From: a virus
Taxonomy: Duplodnaviria > Caudoviricetes
IMG/VR virus record: IMGVR_UViG_3300028591_000079
Coordinates: 1 to 64,000 of that record
Strand: one strand, 5' to 3'
Length of the DNA: 64,000 bases
The position numbers and the translations under genes are program-made. Under the pieces are notes generated by a model that worked only from the letters and a program-made list of their open reading frames with translations, did no database searches and was not told the DNA's origin. Of the stretch, positions 20-16,628 are shown piece by piece (within the stretch, counting starts at the first letter, position 1; each line of letters begins with the position of its first letter).

Positions 20-33
20 TTCGAGGATAAGAA
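20..33 (-). repeat. Shufflon recombination site 1 (TTCTTATCCTCGAA), pointing off the left end of the window
   Basis: Exact 14-bp match to sites at 893, 9008, 10395 and 14848; nt 1-33 are the exact reverse complement of 10395-10427 (reads FLSSNQGAENS). Confidence 0.9.
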
Positions 34-78
34 TTAATTGTCAATATTTACATGGTTTCCAAATCAATTTTATTCTTA

Positions 79-85
79 AGTTCTA
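79..85 (+). promoter_or_regulatory. AGTTCTA putative late-promoter motif upstream of the tail-fibre gene
   Basis: Same heptamer is intergenic and co-oriented upstream of the capsid gene and at least 6 other genes. Confidence 0.6.
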
Positions 86-142
86 TCTAAAGTGGTCAAT
101 TGACAAAAACAAAAAAACAAACACCAATATTGGAGTAAACAA

Positions 143-1729
143 ATGGCAAAGTATGTAAAAAGTATAAAGTTTAGCACCAGTGGAGAAACCTACACAATTC
201 GTGATGCTGAACAAAAAGCAAGGTTGGATACTTTGGAACCAAAAGTTACAAGTGTTGAAACCGCTTTGGGTGGAAAACAAGATACTTTGGTTTCTGGTAC
301 CAATATCAAAACAATAAATGGTAAAACCATTTTAGGTAGCGGTAATTTAGTTATCGAAGGTGGTTCTGGTGGAACTTCTGATTATGAACAATTAGAAAAC
401 AAACCACAGATTGACGGCAAAGAGTTGAATAAAAACTCAACTGCTGAAAGTTTGGGACTAGCAACAACATCATCCTTGGAAGGTAAACAAGATGTTATCG
501 ACAGTACACATAAGTTGGATGTTAATTTGGTGGATGGTGCTGCAACTACAACAGCTTTAGAAACAAAAGCGGATGCAAGTGCTTTGACAGCACACACTGA
601 AAATAGTGACATTCACGTTACAGCATCTAAAAAAACAGAATGGGATGCAAAACAAGACAAACTAACATCTGCAAATGCAGGAGATAATATTACAATAACC
701 GAAGTTGGTGGTGTTGTAAAAATCAATTCTACAGGTGGTACAGGTGGTTCAACAAGTTTTGCAAATTTAACTGGAAATCCTGAAGATAATGATGCATTAA
801 AAGACGCACTTGATGCAAAGGCTAATGAGGCTACAACCCTTGCTGGATATGGGATTACGGATGCTTACACTAAGACAGAAGCAGACAGCGAGTTCTTATC
901 CTCGAATTTAGGCTCTGAAAATGCCGGAAAAGTCCTAGGCATTGATACAAATGGTGAGGTAGTTACAGTAGAAAATTCAGGTGCTCCAACTATTGAAGGG
1001 TATATAAAGATACAAGGTAAAAATCTATTCAATCCAAACACATGTACTTATAACGGTTATGCTATAGCCAGTGCATCTGCTGGTAAAATATCAATATATC
1101 CAGATTCTACTACTAGTTGGTCTATAATCATACCCATCGAACCAGGCAAAACTTATACAATAAGTCGTAGTAGCGAATCAACAAACAACAGATTTAGATT
1201 TGCAGCATTGAAAAAAGATCCATCGGATTGTACGCATAATGAAGCTTGTTTATATAATATAAACAATTGGACATTGGGTAGTATACCAATGACTACAGAT
1301 GAAGTATTAACAAAAACATTTACCGTACCTGTTGATAGCGATTTTTGTTATATATTTATCAATATCAGCAACGAAGCTATAGATTATACACAACTAGTTA
1401 ATTTCCAATTAGAAGAAGGTAATATTGCAACATCTTATGAACCGTACGGTGTATTTGATTCAGCAACACTTAGAGACAATGTGATTTTTACAAGCTCAGA
1501 TGATATATTGAACTTGAACATTACAGAACCAAATAATCCTTCTGTTGCATTTGGCAGTACAGTAAATTTTAGTAGTGGAAATATTGCAACTACATTTGTA
1601 TCGCCTAATATTATCTATAGGGGTGATAATACTGCAAATGGTATATTTACTCCTGTTTCCAATAAACGATATACTGTATTTTATTTTTATAATGGAATAA
1701 ATGTTTGTGGTTCAGTACAAGGAGTATAG
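143..1729 (+). CDS. Tail fibre/receptor-binding protein: constant N-terminus (143-~906) fused to currently expressed cassette A
   Basis: Phage fibre motifs KQDTLVSGTNIKTING, DYEQLENKPQI, HTENSDIHVT, ATTLAGYGITDAYTK; recombination site inside the ORF at FLSSN; GKNLF...QLEEGNIATSYEPY carbohydrate-binding-like domain. Confidence 0.85.
   Translation: MAKYVKSIKFSTSGETYTIRDAEQKARLDTLEPKVTSVETALGGKQDTLVSGTNIKTINGKTILGSGNLVIEGGSGGTSDYEQLENKPQIDGKELNKNSTAESLGLATTSSLEGKQDVIDSTHKLDVNLVDGAATTTALETKADASALTAHTENSDIHVTASKKTEWDAKQDKLTSANAGDNITITEVGGVVKINSTGGTGGSTSFANLTGNPEDNDALKDALDAKANEATTLAGYGITDAYTKTEADSEFLSSNLGSENAGKVLGIDTNGEVVTVENSGAPTIEGYIKIQGKNLFNPNTCTYNGYAIASASAGKISIYPDSTTSWSIIIPIEPGKTYTISRSSESTNNRFRFAALKKDPSDCTHNEACLYNINNWTLGSIPMTTDEVLTKTFTVPVDSDFCYIFINISNEAIDYTQLVNFQLEEGNIATSYEPYGVFDSATLRDNVIFTSSDDILNLNITEPNNPSVAFGSTVNFSSGNIATTFVSPNIIYRGDNTANGIFTPVSNKRYTVFYFYNGINVCGSVQGV
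893..906 (+). repeat. Shufflon recombination site 2 (expressed junction, encodes FLSS-N)
   Basis: Exact TTCTTATCCTCGAA, in frame within 143..1729. Confidence 0.92.
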
Positions 1730-1731
1730 GT

Positions 1732-2775
1732 ATGAATTTAAACTATTTAAAACCTGCTTTTGAAGAAAAAAGCCGAAAAACAAAAATATCAGGCGAAACA
1801 CCATTCTTAATAGATGGTGTTTCACCAAACAAAGATATAACCATGTCTGTTTTTGGTAACACATTTACTGATATTGAATTACCAGATGGAGCACAATTAG
1901 TTGAATATTTAGAAAGTGATGGTACACAATCTGCATATATAACTGATGTTCCATATAGTTCTGTAGAAACAGTTGTTACCATTATAGCTGAATCAAATGA
2001 TGTTGATAGAAACAGACAATGCTGTGGTTTTGGTAATAGTACAGGCAACTGGATTGGTGGATCAGATGTTTGGACTATCGGCGGAAATATTGATTCAGAA
2101 ATAGAAACAAGTCAAAAAACTACACTTGTAATTCGTTGGAATGCAAACAAACAATATTTTGTAACTGCAAACGACATTCCTGTATCAACCGCATCGCGTT
2201 CAGTAACTTCAAGTTCTACAAGTTATGAGACTAAAGGATATTTTAAATTATTTGGTTGCACCAACAGAAATAATGCTAATGTATTTAATGGAAAAATTTA
2301 TTTTTGTAATATTGTAAGAAATAATACTTTGATAAAAAATTATTTACCGTGTAAATATGATAATACAGTTGGTTTGTATGATTTAGTAGAAAAACAATTT
2401 CATGAGGTTGCTGGAGTAACTGCTGGTCCAAATATAAACGTAGAAGATTTAGATACAATAGCTAGACCAATTTGGAACTCTTTAACAAATCCGTGTCCTA
2501 TAACTACAAACAAAAATTTTCAAATCTTAATAAACAATGATGTTTATAATGTTCCTTATTCTTTAGCTGGTATTGATGAAACTTATTATGATGAATTTAA
2601 TACACTTTCTGGTGCTATAACCCGGCGTGTTGGAATAAAAATACTTGATGGTACAGAAACCATAAATAAAGTTGAAAATTCAAGTTATCCTCTTGGATAT
2701 GGTTTTACAGTTGATTGCGATGATGTCACACATAAACCAAGTTCAACGGGTATTGTGGACATTTCAAACACGTAG
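1732..2775 (+). CDS. Cassette A second gene, N-terminal part (tail-associated, lectin-like); probably continues into 2796..5231 via a frameshift
   Basis: AGGAG RBS before ATG 1732; VEYLESDG...GLYDLV fibre domain; frame 3 is open from 2736 (TKFNGYCGHFKHV) and joins the next ORF. Confidence 0.7.
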   Translation: MNLNYLKPAFEEKSRKTKISGETPFLIDGVSPNKDITMSVFGNTFTDIELPDGAQLVEYLESDGTQSAYITDVPYSSVETVVTIIAESNDVDRNRQCCGFGNSTGNWIGGSDVWTIGGNIDSEIETSQKTTLVIRWNANKQYFVTANDIPVSTASRSVTSSSTSYETKGYFKLFGCTNRNNANVFNGKIYFCNIVRNNTLIKNYLPCKYDNTVGLYDLVEKQFHEVAGVTAGPNINVEDLDTIARPIWNSLTNPCPITTNKNFQILINNDVYNVPYSLAGIDETYYDEFNTLSGAITRRVGIKILDGTETINKVENSSYPLGYGFTVDCDDVTHKPSSTGIVDISNT

Positions 2776-2795
2776 CAGATGGCAAATATGCAAGT

Positions 2796-5231
2796 ATGCT
2801 AGATGGCACATTTTATTGTCCCAGTACAAAAAATCGCTTTTTGTTTAATACTTCGTCTTACACAACAGTTGAAGAATTTACTACATTTTTAGTTGAGCAA
2901 TATCAAGCAGGAACACCAGTTACTATATTTTATCCGCTCGATTCTGAAACAATAGAACAGGAAGATCCTTTGGATATTGCTTTTGCATATGGAGATAACA
3001 ATGTTGATAGTTTTCCAACAGGCATTGAAATGGATCTTATATATTATGATAATAATCCAAAAGATTTCGGTGTTAATTTTTATCAAGGGTATGTAAAAAG
3101 CAATGGTAAACTGAGTACTCCAGCAGACGGAGCATCTCACTACCAATATGTAACAACTGATTTTATATATGGTGGCAAGGCTTTTATATTTATCCCAAGA
3201 GATGATTATTTAGTAGAATATGTTGCTTTATATGATACTGACGGAAATATTATAAGTTATAGATATGGTCAACCAAGTGGATCGAGTATATTTAGAAGTG
3301 GAAAATATTATTCTGAAATATTTACACAAAAACAAGTAATTAGAATAACAGTAAGGGCATATAACAAAGGGAAACCAATAAGTCCAGATGAAAAGATTGG
3401 AAAAATATTTGATTATATAACCCCTGACAAATATATACGCGCTTCAATATCAAATCCTATTTATAGAAGAGCAAGAAAGCGTGTATTTCAAGTGTGTGGA
3501 GTAGAAAACCCGGTTAAGGGTAGTACTGCGTATGGTTCAATTAGTGGAGCACATTTGTATGGTACAAGATATGCTAATGGCAACTACACAAATGGATTTG
3601 TTGGAATTGATGTTAGTAAAAGAACTTACGCAACCGCTGTGAATAACAAACATTCTGTTTATTATACTGAATGCCCAATACAAAACATTAGTGGATACGG
3701 ATATGAATATTATACAAATGGAATGAAAAACACAGCCCGATATTATTATGGCAATGTATGTAGTTCAATTCCTTCGGTTTTTTGCAATGCTGGTAGATTA
3801 ATAAATGAAGTTACATGGCGCGCAAGAATGACAGAAACTGCAGTATTAAATAGTGTCGAAGATATGATCAATGTTGAGCCACTAGATATTGTTTATACAT
3901 CAGGACATGTTTATATTATTATAGATAAAATTACTGATTTAGATGGTAATTTGAAATTTTTTGAATATGCTGAATCGACAAGTGCATGGGTATATACACA
4001 TATTTGTATTGTATCTCCGGAACATTTGTATGAGCGTATAGCTGGTGCTGGCGCAGCTGTTATACATAATGCTGTTGGTGATCAAGGTATTATCGATTAT
4101 GGTAATTTTGAAAAAGACGAACCAACAAACTTTATAGAAGAGGATTATGGTTGTTATTATGTGGATTATACATATAATGATGATATTTGTACTTTTAAGG
4201 GGGATTATACAACATTTTTGATCGGAACAAAAGTGTGGTTGAACATAAAAGGGGAAAACTGGGATAAAGTTAAATTATATAAAGACACTTATAATGATGA
4301 AAATGAGTGTATCGAACACTCTCTGGAACATGTTTTTGATATAACTCCTACCCCGGATACTAATGATAAAAATAATTATTGGGCAGATTTAGAAATAACA
4401 TCATATTTTACAAATAAAAATCAATCTGGATTTTATACAGCTACTGCATATAATTCAAACAATGATGTAGAATCTGAATCATGTCATTTTGAAATGTTAT
4501 ATGCTAATGTTGGTCATTTAAATCGTACCTATCCATTGTTAGGTAATGATTATGCAGAAACACGCGGTATGTATTATGATTTTGATGTTAGTGATAATAT
4601 AACAAGAGGTAAAGCGTATTGGAAGCGTCCTAATGGTCAATATGGCGAGACAGTATCTTATGTTGATTATCTAACTTCTGATAATTTATCTGAAGGTACA
4701 GGATTTGTTAGAGCTCAAAACTCAGATGAACTACCTTCTGGTATGACTGAAGATAATGCAGCAGTAGGAGATTTGCGTTATTATACAATTCAAAACAACG
4801 TAAATGTTTTATTTACTGGTGATTATCATAATTATGCACCAATATTGCTTCCAACAACACTTAAGACAAACTTATTGGTTGCAGATATTGCAAATAGGAC
4901 AACCAATACTACTATTGATATAGCTGGTATAGAAACTGAAGCAATTGGATTTAGTGTTACATCACATATTGAAGTACAACCAGATACAACATATGTGTAT
5001 TATTTTACTAAAACCAATAGTAATAATAAAGCTTTAGTTGTAAATGAATATGAAACAAGTGATTCTTCTGCTCAAGTTATAAAAACAACAACTTTGATCA
5101 CAGAAATACAAATGATCAATACAATAGATGGGCTTTATAAAAAAGCAGTTTTCACAACAGATTCAAACACACATTATATCAAAATAAACATGTGTGATTC
5201 TGATGATGGTAAAATGTTATGTGAATATTAA
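2796..5231 (+). CDS. Cassette A second gene, C-terminal part, with NlpC/P60-like Cys-His domain
   Basis: YYGNVCSS...PLDIVYTSGHVYII...EYAES; clear paralogy with 5363..8716 (TTDFIxGG, TAVxNxxSVYxTE, YNDDICTFxGD). Confidence 0.7.
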   Translation: MLDGTFYCPSTKNRFLFNTSSYTTVEEFTTFLVEQYQAGTPVTIFYPLDSETIEQEDPLDIAFAYGDNNVDSFPTGIEMDLIYYDNNPKDFGVNFYQGYVKSNGKLSTPADGASHYQYVTTDFIYGGKAFIFIPRDDYLVEYVALYDTDGNIISYRYGQPSGSSIFRSGKYYSEIFTQKQVIRITVRAYNKGKPISPDEKIGKIFDYITPDKYIRASISNPIYRRARKRVFQVCGVENPVKGSTAYGSISGAHLYGTRYANGNYTNGFVGIDVSKRTYATAVNNKHSVYYTECPIQNISGYGYEYYTNGMKNTARYYYGNVCSSIPSVFCNAGRLINEVTWRARMTETAVLNSVEDMINVEPLDIVYTSGHVYIIIDKITDLDGNLKFFEYAESTSAWVYTHICIVSPEHLYERIAGAGAAVIHNAVGDQGIIDYGNFEKDEPTNFIEEDYGCYYVDYTYNDDICTFKGDYTTFLIGTKVWLNIKGENWDKVKLYKDTYNDENECIEHSLEHVFDITPTPDTNDKNNYWADLEITSYFTNKNQSGFYTATAYNSNNDVESESCHFEMLYANVGHLNRTYPLLGNDYAETRGMYYDFDVSDNITRGKAYWKRPNGQYGETVSYVDYLTSDNLSEGTGFVRAQNSDELPSGMTEDNAAVGDLRYYTIQNNVNVLFTGDYHNYAPILLPTTLKTNLLVADIANRTTNTTIDIAGIETEAIGFSVTSHIEVQPDTTYVYYFTKTNSNNKALVVNEYETSDSSAQVIKTTTLITEIQMINTIDGLYKKAVFTTDSNTHYIKINMCDSDDGKMLCEY

Positions 5232-5258
5232 TCGTAAGTATTGTGTTTTGTTTTAAAT

Positions 5259-5290
5259 AAAACCCCCTTCTGAAAAATGAAGGGGATTTT
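5259..5290 (+). terminator. Rho-independent terminator hairpin
   Basis: CCCCTTC/GAAGGGG stem with A- and T-tracts between convergent cassettes. Confidence 0.75.
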
Positions 5291-5326
5291 ATGTTATATT
5301 ACAACTTTAATTAGCAATAAGTAAAT

Positions 5327-5360
5327 AAAAACCTCCCATTTTTTACGTGGGAGGTTTTTT
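5327..5360. terminator. Bidirectional terminator hairpin
   Basis: AAAAACCTCCCA...TGGGAGGTTTTT. Confidence 0.8.
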
Positions 5361-5362
5361 GG

Positions 5363-8300
5363 TTACGATATTCTTTTTATTGAGATATTTGAATTACCTT
5401 TCAATGCACCAATTCTCAATATTCTGCAACCAGATGGAACGGTTAGTTCCCAAGATGGATTGCTACCCGTTGCTGGTATAGTGCCTGATGATGTTGAATA
5501 GAATATTCCAGCTGTAACAGGTCCACCAGATACACCTGGATTAACGGTATCTTCTACAAAAGTACTGTTTTTATCATAGAATGCATATGTTTCGTAATTA
5601 TATGCAGAACTTAAATCACGATGATATGTATATCTATAAACTTCACCTGGATTGACGATTATAGTTACAAGATTTCTATATGAAGAATCTCTTATAACAC
5701 CAACCGAAGATACATCTTTTCCACTCTGCCAATATTCAGGTCCATAATAATTGAAACCAATACTGCGATCTATCCATTTCTTTATAGATATAGCACTGTT
5801 ACCTTTTAAAGCACCAAGTTTAAATATTGCTGCATTTTGTGGAGCAGTCAATACCCATAATGGTACAGAACCTAAAGCAGGAACATTTGTTGTAGGATAC
5901 AAATAACTTGCATTGTCACCTATTAGTGTTACATTTTCATCATAGAAAGCATATCTTTCATAATTATATGCATCACCTAATTGTCGTGTATATGTATAAA
6001 TGAAAACATCACCTTCTTCTATATCTTCATCAATTCTTACAAGATTTCTGTAACTATTATCAGTTTCAACGCCAGCTGATGTAATATCTCGATTCTCTGT
6101 ATAATATTCTGGATCATAATAGTTAGGTTGTGGTAGCTCATTCAAGTTGTAAAGAACCATTGAAGTATCTGCCTTGATAACCCCCATCTTAAGTTTTACT
6201 GCACCTTGTGGCACTGTTAATTCCCAATGATAGTACTTATTTACTTCTGGAATACTACTTGAGTCATAAAGAGATTGAACTTCACCTACTAATTCATCAT
6301 TTACATCGTAGTATGCGTATCTTTCATATGTATATGAAGCTGAACCCTTTCTATAGCAGAAAAATCTATAAGTGTCTCCAGGGGTTAAATTCTCTACAAC
6401 TACGAGGTCTCTATAGCTATTAGATGTCTCACTACCATCAGAAAGCAAATCTGTATTCGTTTTATAATAGTTTCCATCACAGTAATTTGTTGGTTCGCTA
6501 TAATTTGTCTCATATTTACCATAACCATATTCACCCTTACATCTTACACAAACATAAGGATATGCTGAATTAGGCATAGAATCACTACCCCACCAACAGA
6601 AATGATCTGCTAAATTTGTAACAGTTGGTTTCTTGAATCTTTTACTGTCAATTAAGCCAGCATTAGTAAATCCAGCACCTGATTCTGCAGTAATATACAA
6701 AGGTAAACCGTTTATTTGATCGATTGTATATTGATTCATACCACCAACATTATAACATTTCAATCTTACAGCTAAAACTTCAAAATATGTAGGATCTGAT
6801 TCTACAGTTTCATTTGAATCTTCACGTAAAACCAATGTGTGTTTTACTGTATCGTAAATTGAAACTGTTGCACTTACTTGAACAAACAAGTATGTTGCGT
6901 TTGCTCCAGTTGTTACAGTTACAGCAAATTGATCTGCACTTATTTCTGATTTATTTGTAATTGAGTAAACTGTTGCACTTGATGCTGTATTAACAAAATC
7001 TAGATTAGCCATAGTACCATAAGCTATTCTCAATAAACTATTAGTACTATTTGTTCTGTCTTGTGTCACAGTATAAGTTGTATTTGGTTTACATGGAATT
7101 GCCCAAGTGCGAGAACCATCACTTGAAGCTACAATTTTACCTTGATCTACTGATAAATAATAACCAGTTTTACCAGTAGAAGTTGGAGGTAATAATGTAT
7201 CTGTATGAGCGAAATCAAACAAGTTTTTGCAAGATGTTGTACAATATGCACGATATTTTCCATATTCATTACCATCATAAGGAAAATATGAAGAAATGTT
7301 GATATCACACCAATCAGTATCTAAATAAGCTGTTCCTGTTGTATAATCATTGGAGGTTCTCAAGTATTTCATAGGATAAACAGAACCTTTTGTAATATCA
7401 ATGGTTTGAAAAGATTCATATTGTTGGTTTATTTCATTCCATTTTTCAATTACAAGATTTTCCCAACCGTTGTAACGATGAACATTTAGATAGATTATTC
7501 CACCCCACATAAACTCGGCTTTATCACCTATAAATGTGCAAATGTCATCATTGTAAGCTATTGGTGTAAAATCATCTGTTAGATCATTTCCAATATAATC
7601 CAATAATGGTTCTTGTATCGTATTAATGTCATTTGGTAATCTTGTAACCTGATAACCAAGTTCACCTTCATTCTGTATTCTACTTAACCAACTTTCAACA
7701 CTATAGATAACTGAAGTATAATAAGTGTTTCCACCACCAGATTCACCACATCTTATAAATCTCGGAATACCTGAAGCATCTTTCCAAATTTCAGCTACAA
7801 TCCAGACGTGCGTAGGTTTTACAAGATTGTCTAAAGGTTTTACATTAGTACAATGTTCATCTGGAACAACTTCTGTAGCATTTAAAATCATATTACCGTA
7901 TTCTGATGTTGCAGAATAGTTTCTAGCGAAGTGTAATGCCTTATCATACCCACGAACAAAATCAACAGAGTTTGAACAGTTTTGACCAAACCATCCATTC
8001 GATGATCCATTTGTATCATGATATTTCCAACCATATTGACTTCTATGATTTTGTACATTTTCTGTCCAATAAACTGATCTAGGATTATGAACAGCTGTAC
8101 AATAAGTATATGGTGAAACTTCATAACCAACTCTTCCTGGTGTTTCGTTTTGATCTGAATACTTAACACCTAAACTAACCAATTGATTTTTATAGTTAGT
8201 TGGAGCTACAAAAGCTATATGATTCAATCTACGAAGTGCTTGTTCATATGAAGGATCTTCTGATTGAACAATATCAAAATAACTTCTATCAACGTAAAAG

Positions 8301-8716
8301 AAATCTTCAAATATATCTTCAGTTGGTGAAATATCTCTATCTGGAACAGCTTGTTCACTCACAGTATTCCATCCAACCTCTATTGTTCCATTATGAACGA
8401 TCCCCAATCTCATTCTTAAACTTTTATGAAGATGATGGGAATATTCAGTACATTCTTTATAACAACGTGGCCTAGATGAAATAACTGTTTCTTTCAATAG
8501 ATTGAAATTTTCATCATAAACAGATACCTTATTGATAAAAAATCCTTCTTTTAAATGACAAATAAAGTCTCTTCCACCAATAATAAAATCGGTAGTTACC
8601 CATTTAGAGTGGTCTGTGTCTCCCGAAGTTGACACAGAACCATCCTCTTTTATATAACCCTGTTGAAGACCGATATTACAGATTTCTACACCTTTACCAA
8701 TCAAATCTCTAAACAT
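5363..8716 (-). CDS. Cassette B second gene: large tail-associated protein with NlpC/P60-like domain and three C-terminal repeats
   Basis: WFGQNCSN...PLDNLVKPTHVWIV...GES; three repeats SYRxLV...YxYERYAxYD...WxLTxPxxA..LKxG; RBS GAGG upstream. Confidence 0.8.
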   Translation of the reverse strand: MFRDLIGKGVEICNIGLQQGYIKEDGSVSTSGDTDHSKWVTTDFIIGGRDFICHLKEGFFINKVSVYDENFNLLKETVISSRPRCYKECTEYSHHLHKSLRMRLGIVHNGTIEVGWNTVSEQAVPDRDISPTEDIFEDFFYVDRSYFDIVQSEDPSYEQALRRLNHIAFVAPTNYKNQLVSLGVKYSDQNETPGRVGYEVSPYTYCTAVHNPRSVYWTENVQNHRSQYGWKYHDTNGSSNGWFGQNCSNSVDFVRGYDKALHFARNYSATSEYGNMILNATEVVPDEHCTNVKPLDNLVKPTHVWIVAEIWKDASGIPRFIRCGESGGGNTYYTSVIYSVESWLSRIQNEGELGYQVTRLPNDINTIQEPLLDYIGNDLTDDFTPIAYNDDICTFIGDKAEFMWGGIIYLNVHRYNGWENLVIEKWNEINQQYESFQTIDITKGSVYPMKYLRTSNDYTTGTAYLDTDWCDINISSYFPYDGNEYGKYRAYCTTSCKNLFDFAHTDTLLPPTSTGKTGYYLSVDQGKIVASSDGSRTWAIPCKPNTTYTVTQDRTNSTNSLLRIAYGTMANLDFVNTASSATVYSITNKSEISADQFAVTVTTGANATYLFVQVSATVSIYDTVKHTLVLREDSNETVESDPTYFEVLAVRLKCYNVGGMNQYTIDQINGLPLYITAESGAGFTNAGLIDSKRFKKPTVTNLADHFCWWGSDSMPNSAYPYVCVRCKGEYGYGKYETNYSEPTNYCDGNYYKTNTDLLSDGSETSNSYRDLVVVENLTPGDTYRFFCYRKGSASYTYERYAYYDVNDELVGEVQSLYDSSSIPEVNKYYHWELTVPQGAVKLKMGVIKADTSMVLYNLNELPQPNYYDPEYYTENRDITSAGVETDNSYRNLVRIDEDIEEGDVFIYTYTRQLGDAYNYERYAFYDENVTLIGDNASYLYPTTNVPALGSVPLWVLTAPQNAAIFKLGALKGNSAISIKKWIDRSIGFNYYGPEYWQSGKDVSSVGVIRDSSYRNLVTIIVNPGEVYRYTYHRDLSSAYNYETYAFYDKNSTFVEDTVNPGVSGGPVTAGIFYSTSSGTIPATGSNPSWELTVPSGCRILRIGALKGNSNISIKRIS

Positions 8717-8727
8717 GGCTATACCTC

Positions 8728-9021
8728 TTATGCTATTGTTCCAATTACTACGATACCATTTACAACACTCATCACATAAGATGTTTCAGGCCTCATGATT
8801 GGTTGTAATGGACTATATTTTGCTGTGGCAGGTAGACTCATAGTAAATGTCGTATCTGTTGTAAAATATAGTGTTGCTTCTAAATCAGTATCTGTTGACC
8901 CAAAGGCCGTAATTGTCAATGAATCAATAGGATTAGAGCACGTGTAAACCGTATTATAATCTAATGTGGCTAATGTCACAGAAGTATCGGTAATTGTTTG
9001 ATGAGACTTCGAGGATAAGAA
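8728..9021 (-). CDS. Silent variable cassette B (3' half of the fibre gene; short adaptor domain)
   Basis: Frame is open from the site (FLSSKSHQTITDTSVTLATLDY...) into ORF 8728..8979; no RBS/ATG of its own. Confidence 0.8.
   Translation of the reverse strand, partial: FLSSKSHQTITDTSVTLATLDYNTVYTCSNPIDSLTITAFGSTDTDLEATLYFTTDTTFTMSLPATAKYSPLQPIMRPETSYVMSVVNGIVVIGTIA
9008..9021 (-). repeat. Shufflon recombination site 3
   Basis: Exact reverse complement of TTCTTATCCTCGAA. Confidence 0.92.
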
Positions 9022-9035
9022 CTTAATGTGTGTTT

Positions 9036-9644
9036 TTAGTCTGTTATTTCAATTATTACACGTCCATTTTTTATAGCTGGATCTAATATTTTCATAAATT
9101 TATCAAAACACTTTCTGGAATTATATACCCAACTTTTTGTTTGGCTTATTTTAGGACTATCACCAAGGATTAAACATCCAAAAGTATCATCTTTATGGTT
9201 TCCAGTGTGTATTCTAATTCCTTCATATAATGGTACGTTTAATATTTCAGGAAGTTTTTTCTTAAATGCATTTGAGTAAGAAATAATAACACGATAAGTT
9301 CCATAAGGTATAGCTGTTTCTCCATATATTTTTTTGAAATTTTCTTTTTTTGTGCCTTTTGGATTTCTTACTTTATCTTCTAATGTATTACAAACAAATT
9401 CTAAAACATCTGGAGATTCTGGATAGCTTACATATAAATCACCAATTGTATCACTCTCGTTGAATATTTTTCTTTTTACTGTTATTTTTAGTGCCCAATC
9501 TACATTTTCTTTTTTTTCTTCAACCACTTTATTCTCCTTAGATGTTTCTTTATTTTCTTTATTATCAGCAACAATATTAGGGACATTATTATCTTTCTTT
9601 TTTTGAAACAATGAGGTTATGAATGTTAATACAGTTTTCCACAT
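9036..9644 (-). CDS. DUF5675-family protein (putative cell-wall/lysis enzyme)
   Basis: TIGDLY...CNTLED...GETAIPYGTY...GIRIHTGN...DTFGCLILG signature. Confidence 0.75.
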   Translation of the reverse strand: MWKTVLTFITSLFQKKKDNNVPNIVADNKENKETSKENKVVEEKKENVDWALKITVKRKIFNESDTIGDLYVSYPESPDVLEFVCNTLEDKVRNPKGTKKENFKKIYGETAIPYGTYRVIISYSNAFKKKLPEILNVPLYEGIRIHTGNHKDDTFGCLILGDSPKISQTKSWVYNSRKCFDKFMKILDPAIKNGRVIIEITD

Positions 9645-9673
9645 TTTGTTTTTCCTTTTTCGTGTACACTATT

Positions 9674-9705
9674 TAGAACTTCTTTTTGTCATGTTCAGAG
9701 TTCTA
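9674..9705. promoter_or_regulatory. Divergent pair of AGTTCTA motifs (minus at 9674-9680, plus at 9699-9705)
   Basis: Back-to-back copies between divergent genes 9644(-) and 9715(+). Confidence 0.6.
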
Positions 9706-9714
9706 TATAGTATC

Positions 9715-10086
9715 ATGAAGAACAGTATATTAGCCTATTCAATTCAAAAAAACATTGTATCAGTTTATTACAAAGATATAATAGATAACCCACTGACAGA
9801 TGGTAAAACAGTTGGGGATATTATTGCGTTGGTAGAAGAAAAAAACCTCCCAGATGTAGTATCAATAAAAAATATAAAAACTGATGTAACAAAAGTAGGA
9901 AATAAATACAGACTAATAACAAATCTTACATATATATCTGATGGCGAATCTGAATCTTCTTCTATTGTTTTTGATGGTGAAGAAGAATATATACAAGATG
10001 AACAAAAAGTTATAATTCTAAACACCAGATATGAAGTTATAAGCGATGAAAGTGGTGATATTGTTTTAGATTATATAACAGAGTAA
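9715..10086 (+). CDS. Hypothetical protein
   Basis: In-frame ATG at 9715 just after the AGTTCTA motif; the upstream part of the track ORF overlaps the opposite gene. Confidence 0.6.
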   Translation: MKNSILAYSIQKNIVSVYYKDIIDNPLTDGKTVGDIIALVEEKNLPDVVSIKNIKTDVTKVGNKYRLITNLTYISDGESESSSIVFDGEEEYIQDEQKVIILNTRYEVISDESGDIVLDYITE

Positions 10087-10107
10087 TAAAAATCAAAAGG
10101 AATAAAG

Positions 10108-10326
10108 ATGGCATTAACAGCAATAGATACATATACGGTTACAAAAAACGGTGAATATGATAAAACAACAAAAAATACAGAAAAAACAAAAATAAACAAT
10201 GATCAAATAGTTTTTGCAAAAGAATTAGAATTAAAGTTTGACCCAAAAGACACAGAATCAGTACAAGTGGCAAAAATGTATCTAAGCAATGGTATGTCTA
10301 TAATAGTAGCAAAAACAAGCATATAA
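10108..10326 (+). CDS. Small hypothetical protein
   Basis: AAGGA RBS; followed by terminator. Confidence 0.7.
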   Translation: MALTAIDTYTVTKNGEYDKTTKNTEKTKINNDQIVFAKELELKFDPKDTESVQVAKMYLSNGMSIIVAKTSI

Positions 10327-10347
10327 AAACTTTGTATAGCAATTTAA

Positions 10348-10386
10348 AATAGCCTCCAAATGTTGTTTTTTGGAGGTTATTTTTTT
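10348..10386 (+). terminator. Terminator insulating silent cassette C
   Basis: AATAGCCTCCAAA...TTTGGAGGTTATTTTTTT immediately before site 4. Confidence 0.75.
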
Positions 10387-10394
10387 ATAATAAG

Positions 10395-10408
10395 TTCTTA
10401 TCCTCGAA
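10395..10408 (+). repeat. Shufflon recombination site 4
   Basis: Exact TTCTTATCCTCGAA. Confidence 0.92.
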
Positions 10409-12968
10409 TCAAGGGGCTGAAAATAGCGGTAAAGTCTTAGTTACAAAAAATGATGGTGAAGTTGTTTTAGCAGAGCCTGATGATACAATTACTGTGTATT
10501 CTGGTATGCGTCATGGTAAAAACTTCATAAATCCAGATGATCCCGATTGGAGTGAAACATCGTTTATAAACGCATCTGGTCAAAGAATTGCAACTCAAGG
10601 TGAAGATCCATCATCGTCATATCAAGATAATTTTGGTCATACCGGTTTGTGCCCTGTAAAAGAAGGCTATACTTACACATATTCGTCAGATTGTACTGGA
10701 ACTGGTAATATTAGAATTCACGCTTATGATGCTAATGGTAATTGGCTTCAACAAATTTGGTATACTTCAGGTCCAAATTGGACTGGCTCAAAAAGCTTTA
10801 CTACACCAGCTGGGTGTAAATTTGTTTTATGCAACTTTTTCAAAGAAAATCGTACATTTATTCAATTAGAAGAAGGCAATACAGCAACCGAATATGAACC
10901 ATATTATGAAGAAAGCGTATCAACTATCGGCGCTAATATTGATATGGAAGCGGTTACAGAAACAATAGAAGAAAAAGTTGAAGAAGTTGTTTCTGAAATG
11001 GATTTAACTCCTGTCGGAAAAATGCATAATCCACCTTTAAGAATGGATAAAAGTACATTCAGAGTTTTAGATATCGGTAATTCATTTACAAAAGACTGTA
11101 TTTCATATATATCAAGTCTTATTACTCATTTAGGTGTTGATGCTTCCAATATGTCATTTACTTCTGCTTATAGAGGTGGTGCATCATATAAAAACTGGTT
11201 TGATATATTCCACGATAAAGATACTTCAAGTTATACAATCGAAAAAGTATTTGGTGGATTGACAGAAACTTATCCAGGTAGTCATGGCGCAGGTCAAGGT
11301 GAATGCTTCCGTAATTGTTTGAAAGACCACCATTATGATTTGATTATTATTCACCAAGTTTCTACATATTCTGGTGCTTATCAAGGTTGGGAAGGCAGTG
11401 GTGCTGATGGTTATCTAAAAGAATTTATTAGACTGTTAAGATTTTATCAACCACAAGCTCATATTGGTTTCTTGATGGTACATGCTTCACCTAGACAACA
11501 ACAATCTGGAGAAGCTAACACTAGACCACAATGGGGAAGAATAGCTGAAAGTACAAAATGGTTGGTTCAAAACTATGATATAGACTTCATAATTCCAGCA
11601 GCAACAGCAGTAGAAAATCTTCGTATATCTACAGATGCTAAAAATGCTGCCCATCAACTAACTAGAGATAATCATCATATGGCTTATGGATTGTGTCGTT
11701 ATACTGGAAATTGCACATATTACGAAACAGTCTTCGCCCCATACTTTGGAAAATCTATGTATAACTCTGGATGGATGCCAACAACAGAAGCAGCACCTTC
11801 AGGTTATGAATCAGATTGTATTTCTTTGACTAATGTAAATATTCAAGTTGGTCAAATGTGTGCCATGTTGGCTATAAATGATAAATGGACACTAACAAAT
11901 CCTGATGGTTTATATATTGGTCCAGAAGAAGATGTTCCAGTTCCACCAACTCCAGTAGATCCAACTGAAGGTATGGTTCAATTGAATTTACAAGCCCCAG
12001 GTAACATGGAACAAGGATGGTGGGCATGGAGTGATAGTGCAACACCAACAGCATACGATGTTACTGCTGGAGTTTTACTAGATGACGGTGCTGTAAATGG
12101 TGATTGCGATAGCAATCCAACTGGGACGCTTACCGATTTGATAAACAACAACAGTGCAACTCAAGTGTTTTTCAGACCAACTGAATCAACGTTAGTTCCA
12201 GTAGGTTCTAAAATCAAATTGCCAACAGGATATAGTGCAAGATGCAACTGGTATGGTGAAAATTATGGTTGGTGGAGAAGTGCTAATACTCTAAATGGTG
12301 ATGGTACAACGTATTTTGAGTTAGAACCAATTTCATTAGATGGTGTTCCATCAGACCATCAATTCACAAGAGTATATTTGAGTATCTATAGAGTAGCTGA
12401 TCAAGGAAGTGGTTCAGGTAAAGGTAGATCAATACTTAACGATACTTACATCAACGCTAGAATCGCAGATGGTATTGAAATCTGGGTACCTGAAGGACCT
12501 TATCCCGAATATGAAGAAATGATTTTAAATACTACTAACGTTCTTCCAGGTTGGTGGAGATGTGCTGCAGGTTCAACAGGGACAACGGTTAATACTATAA
12601 TGAGTATACCTTCAGGATACCCAATGTTAGTAACAAATCATACCACTACACCCTATATTGGTTTGCCCGAAGTTGATATGGGAAGTAAATTAGTCATTCC
12701 AGCTGGTTATTCAATGAGACCACAATATATCAACTCCACAACACAACAGGCTATAAGAGATGGTGCAGAAGTTGAAGGTCCAGTAACATTCAACACAGCA
12801 ACTGATTATAACTGCCCAGCTGCAACAATGGAAACTTTGAATCCAGATAAAGTAAGAATGCATTACTATAAAGTTGCAGATGTAGGTCAAGGTGGTGCAA
12901 GTGTTGATACTGCATACATTGAAGCTAATTTACCAGGTTTTGTTATGTATATACCTGAAAATGAATAA
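10395..12968 (+). CDS. Silent variable cassette C: fibre C-terminus with SGNH/GDSL esterase (DUF4886-like) domain
   Basis: Open from the site (FLSSNQGAENSGKVL...) in frame with 10494..12968; RVLDIGNSFT, YDLIIIHQVS, IIPAATAVENLR, RDNHH motifs. Confidence 0.8.
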   Translation, partial: FLSSNQGAENSGKVLVTKNDGEVVLAEPDDTITVYSGMRHGKNFINPDDPDWSETSFINASGQRIATQGEDPSSSYQDNFGHTGLCPVKEGYTYTYSSDCTGTGNIRIHAYDANGNWLQQIWYTSGPNWTGSKSFTTPAGCKFVLCNFFKENRTFIQLEEGNTATEYEPYYEESVSTIGANIDMEAVTETIEEKVEEVVSEMDLTPVGKMHNPPLRMDKSTFRVLDIGNSFTKDCISYISSLITHLGVDASNMSFTSAYRGGASYKNWFDIFHDKDTSSYTIEKVFGGLTETYPGSHGAGQGECFRNCLKDHHYDLIIIHQVSTYSGAYQGWEGSGADGYLKEFIRLLRFYQPQAHIGFLMVHASPRQQQSGEANTRPQWGRIAESTKWLVQNYDIDFIIPAATAVENLRISTDAKNAAHQLTRDNHHMAYGLCRYTGNCTYYETVFAPYFGKSMYNSGWMPTTEAAPSGYESDCISLTNVNIQVGQMCAMLAINDKWTLTNPDGLYIGPEEDVPVPPTPVDPTEGMVQLNLQAPGNMEQGWWAWSDSATPTAYDVTAGVLLDDGAVNGDCDSNPTGTLTDLINNNSATQVFFRPTESTLVPVGSKIKLPTGYSARCNWYGENYGWWRSANTLNGDGTTYFELEPISLDGVPSDHQFTRVYLSIYRVADQGSGSGKGRSILNDTYINARIADGIEIWVPEGPYPEYEEMILNTTNVLPGWWRCAAGSTGTTVNTIMSIPSGYPMLVTNHTTTPYIGLPEVDMGSKLVIPAGYSMRPQYINSTTQQAIRDGAEVEGPVTFNTATDYNCPAATMETLNPDKVRMHYYKVADVGQGGASVDTAYIEANLPGFVMYIPENE

Positions 12969-12986
12969 CTAACAGTATTTGAGTCT

Positions 12987-13028
12987 AAAAACTAACCCTC
13001 CCACTTTTATTGATGGGAGGGTGTTTTG
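12987..13028. terminator. Bidirectional terminator between cassettes C and D
   Basis: ACCCTCCCA/TGGGAGGGT stem with flanking A/T tracts. Confidence 0.75.
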
Positions 13029-13036
13029 TTAAGTTT

Positions 13037-14071
13037 TTATGCTGGTACATTATAACTATCAGCACTTTTCAATATTTTATCTGCAACATATCTACAAAGA
13101 CCAAGAACATTAGGGCCATTTGATAAGATCAAATCAAGATACATTCCATCATCGTTACGTAATATGTCACCTGTTTGTTCATTGAAATCTGTTCCACTAT
13201 CTGGAATACAATCTTTTTCACTCAAAGAATGATATTCCAATAGATTTATTCCAGAATCCATAAAAATAATTGCTGACATAATTTTTGTTGTGGAAGCTGG
13301 ATTGAACTGAGTATCAGCACTTTGCTCGAACAAATATGTTGGTGTAAAATTGGTCCATGTTTGTGGAAATGCTGGAACCGGTAAATATGCAGCACAACCA
13401 TATTCAGCATGTGTTATACTAGATGGTACAGGTTCTGGAGTTTCACCTGGATTAAGACGTGAATTTCTGATTTCTGCAGCACAAATATCGAGAATTTCAC
13501 AAACAGCCATAGCTCTATGTTCTCTTCCTGTATGTCCATCTTCTGTTCCACTTATACGTGAAATGACTGCTGTTACGTATTCGTTTTCAACTAAAGCGTT
13601 TACAATATAACAATAGCATCTTTGTGTTGTTGGTGTTGTCCAACCACCACCTTTAGAAGCAAGCACTTTATAAGGAAACACTATTGTACTATCATTGTGA
13701 AGAGTTTTATAAGCATTTGCAAAGCTTTCTTGAGCATTAGATGTAAGAGTATAAGTTCTTGCATGATCACCATAGACAGGTATTTGTCTTGTACCAGCAA
13801 ATGAACAGTATTGTATGATTTGTGGATATCCACACATGAAAATACCCAACTTCAACAAATCTCTTGCAGTACTCACATTATAATCGGAATACATTGAACC
13901 ACCATATGGATTATTGAATGTAGTATTTGTCATTCCAATTAGTTGTGCTTTTTTGTTCATCAAAGATACAATTACCGCATATTTTTCTTCATCAGTATGT
14001 TGTATATCTGTATTTTGTGAAATAATTGACTGCCATTGATTATTTTCATCTTTATATTTCAAAACTGACAT
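13037..14071 (-). CDS. Cassette D second gene: circularly permuted serine D-Ala-D-Ala carboxypeptidase (peptidase S11/PBP)-like protein
   Basis: MNKKAQLIGMTNTTFNNPYG, STARDL and KGG precede PASTTKIM (SxxK) and LILSN; N-terminal MSVLKYKDENNQW resembles fibre-associated proteins. Confidence 0.75.
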   Translation of the reverse strand: MSVLKYKDENNQWQSIISQNTDIQHTDEEKYAVIVSLMNKKAQLIGMTNTTFNNPYGGSMYSDYNVSTARDLLKLGIFMCGYPQIIQYCSFAGTRQIPVYGDHARTYTLTSNAQESFANAYKTLHNDSTIVFPYKVLASKGGGWTTPTTQRCYCYIVNALVENEYVTAVISRISGTEDGHTGREHRAMAVCEILDICAAEIRNSRLNPGETPEPVPSSITHAEYGCAAYLPVPAFPQTWTNFTPTYLFEQSADTQFNPASTTKIMSAIIFMDSGINLLEYHSLSEKDCIPDSGTDFNEQTGDILRNDDGMYLDLILSNGPNVLGLCRYVADKILKSADSYNVPA

Positions 14072-14088
14072 GACATATTCCTTTTGTT

Positions 14089-14861
14089 TTATATTAAGCC
14101 GTTTGCTACATCTGGTCCCTTAGTAACAAATGGGTTGCCAAAAGATGTCCAAAATGGTGTATTAGTTTGTGGGCAAATGTTTCCTTCCATGTCGTAAAAA
14201 CCTATTACATTATCAGATAATCTATAGCATGGGACGAAATGGAAACTCTTATTTGAGTCTGTCAAAATTATATCATAAACATTCGCATAAATCCAACGTG
14301 CATAACTATCTGCAGAATGATTACATAACACAGAAAGAGTTTGATTTACAGTAAACGTTTGTGTTGATGGGGTGTCAACAAACTAGACCCATAATAGAAC
14401 GAACCGTCATGTAAAGAATAAACTCTTCTATCTGTTATTGCACCACCTGAAGGAAGATTGCCACTTATTTCAGTCAATGTTCCCCATAATATTGCATATT
14501 TAGTACCACTTACTCTATAAGCAAAGCGTGGTGTGTCTGTGGTTTCATAAGCACCAGCAAAGCATACTTGTGTACTAGGTGTTTGTGTTATTTTGGCATC
14601 AATATAAAAGCTTAAATTATTAGTTGGATTGAAACCTAAATCAAGATATTGACTACCTTCTGCTACTACATATTCAACTCTTTGATATTCAGGCGCAGTA
14701 GATGTATCTAACCAAAATTGATAAAATGAATCTGTTGGTGCAGTATTTCCAATATAGATAACTTGATTCGTTGTACTACCGCTTGCAGCAACAACTTTAC
14801 CTTGTGAATCTACTGCTAAAAACTTACCTTCATTTTCAGAACCTTGGTTCGAGGATAAGAA
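14089..14861 (-). pseudogene. Silent variable cassette D (3' half of fibre gene), with an apparent 1-nt frameshift near 14375
   Basis: Open from site 5 (FLSSNQGSENEGKFL...YQRVEYVVAEGSQYLDLG) to a stop at 14346; the adjacent frame continues TPSTQTFTVNQTL...FVPCYRLSDNVIGFYD to 14089. Confidence 0.7.
14848..14861 (-). repeat. Shufflon recombination site 5
   Basis: Exact reverse complement of TTCTTATCCTCGAA, 14 bp past the recombinase stop codon. Confidence 0.92.
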
Positions 14862-14875
14862 CTTGATTGATGAAA

Positions 14876-16171
14876 TTATACATAAAATACGACCATACCT
14901 TTGACTTTTTTACCTATAATTTTAGATACCGCTTCTTTAAGTGTTTTGTCTGATATTCCTGTTTGAATCATTACATTGTTTGCTCTTTTTTGCTTGTCTT
15001 TTATCCATTTCTTACCCAATAAGAGCGCTATATAAGGGTATGTAATTTGATTTATTGCATCCATCATTGCCAATGGAGATGTCTCCATTGATATTTTTGT
15101 ATATGTTTTAGCCGCTATAGAATTGTTGCTTGATTTGTTTCCGGCAATAGCTTCAAGCATTTCCAATGGAATTCCTACTTTTACATTTGCAGAATAAAAA
15201 CACTTTTTAAAAGAGTGAAAGTCTTTTATATATTTAGATTCTTTTTCTGGTTTGATTTCCAAAGCTTCCATTAATGCATTTATATTTGAGTTTATGACCG
15301 ATGGATTGTATGTGTTGTTTTTTGTCAACATAACTTCTTCAAAAATAAATGAGTCTTTTCCATATTCTTTTTCATGGTTTACTAAATAGCTTTTAAAATT
15401 TAATCCAGTAAATAATAATTCAGAAATTGGCAAAACTCGAGATGATTCTTCCGTTTTTAAATGTTTATATGATTCTCTTTCATCTCCAATATTTATCAAA
15501 GCTTTGTCGCAATGTATATTTATTAGTTGTTGTTTTATGTCAATATCTCTATGTCTAATTGTACAAGAGGCGTTTGCACGAGATCCTGTAAATAAAGAAA
15601 TTAAAATAGAATAATAATGTTGCTCTGGGAATTTTTTTATCATTTCCAGTTTTTTCTTCAATTTTTTATGTTTTTTTATTAATATATCAAGATCTGCAAA
15701 ATTACCCTTTTTTATTTTTGCCATCATACCAAATAATTTTTTATAATCCAAATCATTTAGTGGTATTCTGTCTTTTTTAGGGTTTAATTCTTTTACTTGA
15801 CTACAATTCAATAATGATAATTTTCTAAAAATTTTGTCAGTATTTTTTAGTTTTGAATTTTCATCAGCAACTCTAATTATTTGTCTAAAAAGTCTAAAAA
15901 ATTCTTTAATTGTCTTATGTGAATACTTCTTACCCTTGTTTTTTCCACTTGGTTGAACGTATGAAAATAGTTTTTGTTTCATATCATCAATTATACCAGG
16001 ATTTTGATCGATTTCTCTTATGTCCTCTACACCACATAATTTAATTAATAACTCAACACGGGCATCCGCAGTTACCCTATCTTTTTTACCAAAATTATGC
16101 TCTACACTCTTATACCATATTTTTCTTATGTTATATTTTGTAATGTAGTTTTTGTTTTCATTTTGTACCAT
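14876..16171 (-). CDS. Tyrosine recombinase (putative shufflon invertase)
   Basis: LFTGSR (Arg), LKTEESSRVLPI (Lys), FHSFKK (HxxR-like), IAGN...KTY (Tyr); adjacent to the repeat array. Confidence 0.85.
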   Translation of the reverse strand: MVQNENKNYITKYNIRKIWYKSVEHNFGKKDRVTADARVELLIKLCGVEDIREIDQNPGIIDDMKQKLFSYVQPSGKNKGKKYSHKTIKEFFRLFRQIIRVADENSKLKNTDKIFRKLSLLNCSQVKELNPKKDRIPLNDLDYKKLFGMMAKIKKGNFADLDILIKKHKKLKKKLEMIKKFPEQHYYSILISLFTGSRANASCTIRHRDIDIKQQLINIHCDKALINIGDERESYKHLKTEESSRVLPISELLFTGLNFKSYLVNHEKEYGKDSFIFEEVMLTKNNTYNPSVINSNINALMEALEIKPEKESKYIKDFHSFKKCFYSANVKVGIPLEMLEAIAGNKSSNNSIAAKTYTKISMETSPLAMMDAINQITYPYIALLLGKKWIKDKQKRANNVMIQTGISDKTLKEAVSKIIGKKVKGMVVFYV

Positions 16172-16361
16172 TTTGTCACCTCAAAATTATATTGTACTAA
16201 AAATATTTTAGTCAATTTTTGTCAAGAAGTCAAATTAAAAATTAATCAGAATTTTTAGTTCTATTATATTAGTAAGTACAGTATGTTATTTGCGCCGTAG
16301 CATACTTTATCTTACAAGATCTCAAATCAACAAGGCGCTTATAAATTAAAGAGGTCAAAAA

Positions 16362-16628
16362 ATGGCAGCAGTAATCAAATCTCATGTATATGAAAACAAA
16401 GTAATGATTGATGGTGCAGAAAAAACTGTAAAATATGTACACGCAGTCTATAATGATGTAGAAGATGCAGCACGTACAGAAGCTCTTACACTAGATGCTA
16501 TCAAAAGTGGTGTAACTGATGCTCCAGCAGTAACTGAATTGCGCACCTTACGTACAACTTGCAGCAAACTACCTGGCCAAGAAAAATGGGCAGTTCGCGG
16601 CGTTTTACGTTATATCAATGTTGCATAA
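16362..16628 (+). CDS. Small, probably highly expressed (virion?) protein
   Basis: GAGG RBS, AGTTCTA at 16257, own terminator at ~16652-16688, capsid-like codon usage. Confidence 0.7.
   Translation: MAAVIKSHVYENKVMIDGAEKTVKYVHAVYNDVEDAARTEALTLDAIKSGVTDAPAVTELRTLRTTCSKLPGQEKWAVRGVLRYINVA

Follow-up and report, generated by a model that had tools for sequence, protein, structure and literature searches.

A probable multiple-inversion tyrosine-recombinase shufflon acting on the 3' cassettes of a fibre gene in a T4-capsid-type jumbo phage

Sites, cassettes and recombinase at the fibre locus

The window analysed here is the first 64 kb (64,000 nucleotides) of a 231,064-bp virus record (IMGVR_UViG_3300028591_000079), rated linear and 96% complete, of a phage of about 240 kb whose probable source run sampled the sheep gut. 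It holds a fibre gene with one constant 5' part, several dissimilar 3' cassettes, a tyrosine recombinase gene and a short site repeated at the head of each cassette (Table 1), which we examine as a putative shufflon. The site, the 14-mer TTCTTATCCTCGAA, occurs exactly five times in the window, against 0.46 occurrences expected even when up to two mismatches are allowed, and three more exact copies lie at the far end of the record (220394(+), 225188(-) and 231017(-)); sites are named below by their first position. With eight copies it is the top 14-mer of the genome, the next unrelated word having five, and the record has no other class of related site (TTYNTNNYCTCGA). All eight copies are translated as F-L-S-S-(N/K) in an open frame that continues into differing open reading frames (ORFs), as the original prediction had claimed for the five in the window, whose coordinates and strands it gave exactly. 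It was also right that a coding constant part stands before site 893 alone. The 5' flanks of the silent copies are unrelated non-coding DNA, and identity among the copies begins abruptly 1-3 nt 5' of the 14-mer. On the 3' side, five cassettes have N-x-G-S-E-N-x-G-K in common, at the protein level only and with codons that differ synonymously. Since G-S-E-N-x-G-K is kept only as protein while the 14-mer is invariant in DNA, the site is conserved as DNA and not merely as peptide.

The record holds at least seven cassettes, A to D in the window and E to G at its far end, and two more probably lie in DNA outside the record, for a probable total of nine; the earlier count of at least four alternatives was too low. 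They encode 274 (A), 97 (B), 857 (C), 598 (E), 976 (F) and 838 (G) amino acids, and 172 (D) as recorded. Pfam identifies GDSL/SGNH esterase domains in E, F and G, DUF4886 in C and a weak CBM_4_9 match in A, and the short endings A, B and D are each trailed by a large gene of their own (1166, 1117 and 344 aa). Hairpin terminators lie between the convergent modules A and B and between C and D, as predicted; each of them was scored on one strand only. The N-terminal repeats of the constant part occur in many phage proteins with a C-terminal Pfam Phage_tail_C domain. Over its esterase domain, cassette E matches PHROG 5240 (E 4e-16), annotated as a tail fiber protein; its last 35 residues match the C termini of head fibres. 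The locus lies about 5 kb from the capsid gene (20670-22229), a Gp23 homolog (E 4e-22).

The recombinase gene ends 14 nt from site 14848, as the original prediction had noted. It is the sole Phage_integrase match in the record. No serine recombinase (PF00239, Resolvase) was matched in the 231-kb record, where the control was positive in 12 of 14 genomes, and no reverse transcriptase (PF00078), which a diversity-generating retroelement would carry, was matched in the record either. By sequence, the best match of the recombinase in PDB has an E of 0.05, PHROGs gave weak integrase matches only, and NCBIfam has no family for the recombinase or the fibre. An AlphaFold (AF2) model built on 16 homologs (pLDDT 83) matches tyrosine recombinases only (Brujita Int, XerA, Tn1549 Int, lambda Int, IntI, XerH and Cre), and the top PDB structure matches span about 340-380 aligned columns that include both the core-binding and the catalytic domain. 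Candidate catalytic residues, placed by motif order and not by superposition, are R198, K239, H319, K322, N345 and Y357, and R198, K239, H319 and Y357 are invariant across the 16 homologs. Homologs of about 550 aa have an extra N-terminal domain, lie in bacterial chromosomes beside tgt and look like integrases of integrated elements; the phage forms (406-431 aa) lack that domain. One such homolog (556 aa) follows tgt in an 894-kb bacterial contig (L056 10001-21671). The genes after it encode a DNA methyltransferase, a 1465-aa BigA-like protein and an AAA/RloB pair, so the region looks like an integrated island that carries defence genes.

Could the cassettes instead belong to paralogous fibre genes that share a shaft motif, Y-T-K-x-E-A-D-x-E-F-L-S-S, and recombine by general homologous recombination, the recombinase being a lysogeny integrase or having some other role? 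The motif is a common phage-fibre repeat (the constant part has 2640 database matches), the longer homologs of the recombinase are integrase-like, and one of the exchange boundaries of cassette D and its partner gene falls at a terminator and not at a site (see below). However, the silent cassettes retain the 14-mer with no coding sequence before it, and the 14-mer is invariant in DNA where the motif downstream is kept as protein. General recombination is not efficient on identities as short as 14-16 nt. The arm-binding domain of the integrase-like homologs is missing from the phage enzyme, and in each of two lineages, with recombinases only 48% identical, a site comes directly after the recombinase gene. 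We therefore regard this explanation as very improbable.

Table 1. Features of the putative shufflon in the window
Feature	Position	Strand	Remarks
Site S4	20-33	-	Left boundary of invertible constant segment; here abuts first 19 nt of cassette C
Upstream region of constant gene	34-142	+	Holds AGTTCTATCTAAAGTGG at 79
Constant 5' part of fibre gene	143-892	+	250 codons; C-terminal ...YTKTEADSE before site
Site S5	893-906	+	Putative crossover of expression site, F-L-S-S
Cassette A	907-1729	+	274 aa; at expression site, predicted 528-aa fusion; weak CBM_4_9
Partner gene of cassette A	1705-5231	+	Single 1166-aa gene, start near 1732
Hairpin terminator between convergent modules A and B	5264-5285	+	
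Partner gene of cassette B	5363-8716	-	1117 aa
Cassette B	8728-9007	-	97-aa short ending, silent
Site S6	9008-9021	-	Exact 14-mer; source-run contigs end here
Invertible passenger segment S6-S7 (predicted)	9022-10394		
DUF5675 gene	9036-9644	-	In passenger segment S6-S7
155-aa ORF	9619-10086	+	In passenger segment S6-S7
72-aa ORF	10108-10326	+	In passenger segment S6-S7
Hairpin	10346-10383		In passenger segment S6-S7
Site S7	10395-10408	+	Exact 14-mer; junction piece 10378-10421 at about half depth in source run
Cassette C	10409-12968	+	857 aa, DUF4886 domain, silent
Hairpin terminator between convergent modules C and D	12995-13022	-	
Partner gene of cassette D	13037-14071	-	344 aa, short Peptidase_S11-like stretch
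Cassette D	14089-14847	-	257 aa after +T; record splits it into 14346-14847 and 14089-14331
Site S8	14848-14861	-	14 nt past recombinase stop codon, same orientation as recombinase gene
Tyrosine recombinase	14876-16171	-	431 aa; core-binding and catalytic domains, no arm-binding domain

Alternative junctions in the record and the assemblies

The evidence for isomers is at the contig level throughout, not at that of raw reads. A first set of alternative junctions comes from the ends of the record itself; the window begins within the shufflon. The last 34 nt of the record are the exact reverse complement of the flank 5' of site 220394, so this flank is seen joined to cassette E as well as to G. 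The first 19 nt are the start of cassette C, so that C has two observed partners, the flank of site 10395 and that of site 20. In the probable source run, the k=31 contigs cover 19-991, 1055-9022, 8993-10407, 10392-14877 and 14848-16357; the breaks, with 30-nt overlaps, fall at sites 20, 9008, 10395 and 14848 and not at 893. A 44-nt piece over site 10395 (10378-10421), joining the flank of this site to cassette C, has a depth of 9.5 against about 18 in its flanks. At site 14848, a 43-nt piece with a depth of 7.2 departs from the record by three changes. These changes are exactly those that distinguish the start of C from that of D, so the piece may be read as the recombinase flank joined through the site to C.

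ENA assembly ERZ27256846 was compared through its gene tables, and its tie to the source run is suggested by identical proteins, those of 202, 344 and 528 aa of the window. One of its contigs begins exactly at window position 20 and is collinear with the window up to the 72-aa gene. Past site 10395 it continues into a different cassette (a 624-aa call) that the record lacks, followed by a convergent 784-aa Peptidase_S11 gene, a 70-aa gene, HSP20 and a GDSL pair resembling F and E. A second contig extends from Gp23 across the recombinase, D and its 344-aa partner to C, where it ends at the site of C. HSP20 was not found in the record, and its presence in this assembly indicates that the record is without one shufflon segment, which fits the completeness of 96%. 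Runs X2, X3 and X8 held diverged relatives only.

The same comparisons correct the gene models. The record lacks one T after 2752 and another after 14372, both carried at full depth by the source-run contigs and matched by the gene calls of two other assemblies. With the first, ORFs 1705-2775 and 2796-5231 become a single 1166-aa gene; with the second, cassette D encodes 257 aa instead of 172.

These two single-base errors, and the fact that the record ends inside the region, could be taken as signs of an assembly artefact, in which mis-joined phages would account for the repeated word and the odd contig ends. Yet the segments between sites are consistent in three independent assemblies (IMG/VR, Logan and ENA), and relatives from other samples have the same architecture, so we give this explanation almost no credence.

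Two further observations concern coverage of the locus. Two sheep-gut runs show a depth 2-3 times higher over window positions 9300-10393 and 14770-16400, and the recombinase and DUF5675 backbone genes are common to other phages of the same samples. Many apparent joints linking the DUF5675 and recombinase regions have sides of only 21-28 nt; they were treated as cross-matches to other phages and not as junctions.

Relatives, passenger genes and module exchange

Clean inversions at the same type of site are found in relatives of the phage. L053 and L054 are 99.97% identical save for one 6.8-kb inversion (1159-7975), which ends within GTTTTTATCCTCGAAT, one base off the window site, and exchanges the 3' parts between two convergent GDSL fibre genes, whose products change from 1022 and 1151 aa to 1157 and 1016 aa. 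Their recombinase is 48% identical to that of the window, and in L053 a site variant lies 11 nt past the recombinase stop, co-oriented as in the window. L048 and L049 have in common a 9.7-kb backbone that is 99.6% identical, yet their constant parts are joined to different cassettes, with breakpoints inside CTTCTTACCTCGA and TTTTTATCCTCGAA. In L046 a G-like cassette lies immediately 5' of the constant gene, a layout that supports closure of the record, sites 231017 and 20 being one site. Two pattern scans of JGI metagenome contigs (constant end plus site; site plus conserved cassette start) revealed no close relative, and one such scan of IMG/VR returned nothing. A 16-nt site scan of IMG/VR gave 23 single matches, about the number expected by chance; none was related at the DNA level, and the two large records among these lacked the recombinase. 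A search for related loci returned only short motif matches for the constant part and none for the recombinase.

The site variants of the relatives keep CCTCGA constant and have TTCTTAC, TTTTTAT, TTCCTCA, TTCGTTT or TTTCTAA as their 5' half. By analogy with the sfx sites of R64, a conserved binding arm with a variable crossover half (the 7-8 nt before CCTCGA), which must match that of its partner, would fit these variants better than the TTC/GAA arms around an 8-bp core first proposed. The relatives carry several site classes (CTTCTTACCTCGA, TTTTTATCCTCGAA, TTCCTCACCTCGA, TTCGTTTCCTCGAA and TTTCTAACCTCGAG; L048 4140-4360 and 13790-14010, L046 14985 and 19809), spaced by about 60 nt in successive 20-residue repeats of the shaft; the window genome has one class only.

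Cassette D and its 344-aa partner (window 12994-14863; L046 9208-11078) are 99.1% identical between the window phage and L046, whereas the rest of the 237.7-kb L046 is 71-86% identical. This identity begins 2 nt before the site and ends in the terminator between the cassettes, and the likeness points to a recent transfer of the module between lineages. It lends some support to a broader idea, which we advance tentatively and with more doubt than belief: the sites could act as a common docking code through which the rumen jumbo phages of a whole clade draw on one pool of fibre modules, with integron-like exchange rather than a closed switch. Only like sites would then recombine, giving a nested combinatorial shaft and tip, and modules would also cross between co-infecting phages. 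The near-identity of D and its partner, starting exactly at a site in an otherwise much more diverged phage, is what speaks for such a code.

Several genes lie between the sites without being part of the fibre. Besides those of the S6-S7 segment, thioredoxin (trx), nrdG and nrdD, the latter in two parts, are found between site 225188 and cassette G. The two parts of nrdD, the anaerobic ribonucleotide reductase (L009 14181-16448), are ORFs of 606 and 144 aa separated by 12 nt; in relatives (e.g., L046 5126-8175) a DUF7487 or HNH gene lies beside or between the halves. At site 225188 the flank (L009 13188-13213, equal to record 225188-225213) gives an in-frame ATG four codons upstream, so cassette F may be translated alone in the recorded arrangement. 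An F-like gene in the ENA assembly was called 21 codons shorter, from an internal start, beside another flank.

The constant segment is flanked by inverted sites, 20(-) and 893(+), and would thus be able to flip itself, facing modules on either side. The block 34-142 before the constant gene is 83% conserved 5' of the constant gene of L046. An AGTTCTA motif (AGTTCTATCTAAAGTGG at 79; window 79-95) precedes the constant gene and also occurs at 9680(-), 9699(+), 16257(+) and 16699(+). It has 62 copies in the genome, stands before other gene starts as well, not before the silent cassettes, and is kept 5' of the L046 constant gene; it may be a candidate phage promoter element. A sigma-70 promoter scan gave fewer matches than in shuffled sequence and was uninformative on the promoter.

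Proposed mechanism, known inversion systems and meaning

The locus combines more than two short sites in both orientations, 3' cassettes in one frame, a single constant part and a locus-encoded recombinase, and several isomers with breakpoints at the sites are seen among contigs. The exact in-frame sites and the one adjacent enzyme with a tyrosine-recombinase fold agree with the original prediction, and the alternative junctions in assemblies of the same phage and the clean inversions in relatives strengthen it further. We consider it probable that this is a multiple-inversion tyrosine-recombinase shufflon exchanging the 3' cassettes of one virion fibre gene in a T4-capsid-type jumbo phage.

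Several points weigh against this interpretation. The location of the fibre on the tail is presumed. The recombinase barely exceeds the Pfam threshold for PF00589 (E 2e-6, 27.9 bits against a cut-off of 27.1), the position of the second Arg is K322 (R in P0015, P0020 and P0022), and that of the His/Trp is N345 (H in P0015). L039, whose recombinase is 99% identical, has homing-endonuclease genes and no site after the recombinase stop. In the source run, the junction of the constant part through the site to A (piece 19-991) is unbranched, so no change of the expressed cassette is seen in that sample. Related strains are also present there, as indicated by an allele bubble at 992-1054 and a depth 2-3 times higher over the recombinase and DUF5675 genes; hence some junction variants could be fixed differences between strains. 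Contig-level data cannot tell strains from isomers, so switching inside one clonal population is presumed. These last observations would fit a relic or slow shufflon, whose sites and recombinase gave rise to the arrangements over evolutionary time, with variants now fixed among co-occurring strains and no ongoing switching in one lineage. However, L053 and L054 are nearly identical outside their inversion, the two junction pieces of cassette C add up to approximately full depth (9.5 and 7.2, against 18), and all eight sites remain exact, which makes a relic unlikely in our view.

How would a multiple-inversion shufflon work at this locus? The recombinase, presumably the enzyme that catalyses inversion, would pair two inverted sites, exchange strands within the invariant 14-mer, at a presumed crossover position, and invert the intervening DNA. 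As one frame is common to all sites, any module reaching the constant part would fuse seamlessly at F-L-S-S. The constant segment with its putative promoter would supply the proximal 250 residues of the fibre, the modules themselves being promoter-less. These modules seem to be of two types, fused distal domains (C with DUF4886; E, F and G with esterases) and short adaptor endings (A, B and D) followed by a gene of their own. Passengers would ride in the invertible segments, namely trx, nrdG, nrdD, DUF5675 and, in the part outside the record, HSP20. Modules on the same strand as the constant part would require an earlier inversion of their convergent pair, as in the R64 Rci shufflon, where a tyrosine recombinase acts on seven sites to exchange the tips of the PilV adhesin and convergent pairs need successive inversions. 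The sfx sites of R64 are asymmetric and are conserved at one side and in the centre only. The window locus is like R64 in its tyrosine recombinase and its convergent cassette pairs; it differs in that R64 acts on a plasmid conjugation pilus and not on a virion, with cassettes of a few hundred bp and no partner genes. The progeny would be mixed, with fibres that differ in the surface glycans they recognise or de-acetylate, a form of bet-hedging through a presumed effect on host range.

Exchange of fibre tips by inversion is already known from the Gin, Cin, Min, Rin and BV01-like systems. In Mu (Gin) and P1 (Cin), Sv is inverted along with the whole downstream gene U, like modules A, B and D of the window (PMC6109161 and textbook knowledge); the carriage of whole downstream genes, which the original prediction had thought unusual, is therefore not new. 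Min of the plasmid-prophage p15B exchanges tail-fibre 3' ends by inversion at six crossover sites, with many isomers (PMC6109161 and textbook knowledge). Gin, Cin and Min are serine invertases that work with an enhancer and Fis, unlike the window record, which encodes no serine recombinase. The Rin shufflon, described in 2018 in prophages of Bifidobacterium breve and Bifidobacterium longum, is a phage-encoded tyrosine-invertase system for a receptor-binding protein (PMC6109161). Like the window it has an invertase beside the locus, a constant 5' part and several dissimilar 3' cassettes with a short asymmetric repeat at the head of each, and its isomers were seen between prophage and virion DNA (PMC6109161). 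Unlike the window it belongs to small temperate siphophages; its five cassettes are a few hundred bp long, and its 11-bp site, TTCCCTAACCC, was not found here. The window phage, in contrast, is of about 240 kb with a Gp23 capsid, has at least eight sites over at least 25 kb and cassettes of up to about 3 kb (about 4.5 kb with partner genes), and carries its constant segment and housekeeping passengers inside the shufflon. In BV01-like phages of Phocaeicola vulgatus, an active shufflon with several cassettes occupies the distal end of a tail fibre that binds carbohydrates (2026 preprint, PMC13596623). It is recombinase-flanked and all its configurations appear in reads, in a temperate phage, and it comprises 1.7 kb, three cassettes and 10-bp motifs (PMC13596623). 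Our literature search turned up no paper that describes such a system in a jumbo phage. What is new in the window phage is the scale, the multi-kb enzyme-bearing modules with their partner and passenger genes, and a separate clade of recombinase; the inclusion of the constant segment and of housekeeping passengers and signs of module exchange between lineages also set it apart.

Finally, the host range of a phage is usually regarded as fixed by its genome sequence. Here, one large and apparently lytic phage could carry seven to nine modules that recognise or modify receptors, of which it would express one at any time and which together take up about one tenth of the genome. It is at shufflon loci that metagenomic assemblies of such phages fragment and lose DNA; in this case about 4% of the genome is missing. 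For further study, the locus provides exchangeable esterase-bearing fibre modules of natural origin, along with a compact pair of recombinase and site. Exchange of this kind would help to account for the persistence of jumbo phages on rumen bacteria with variable surface glycans.

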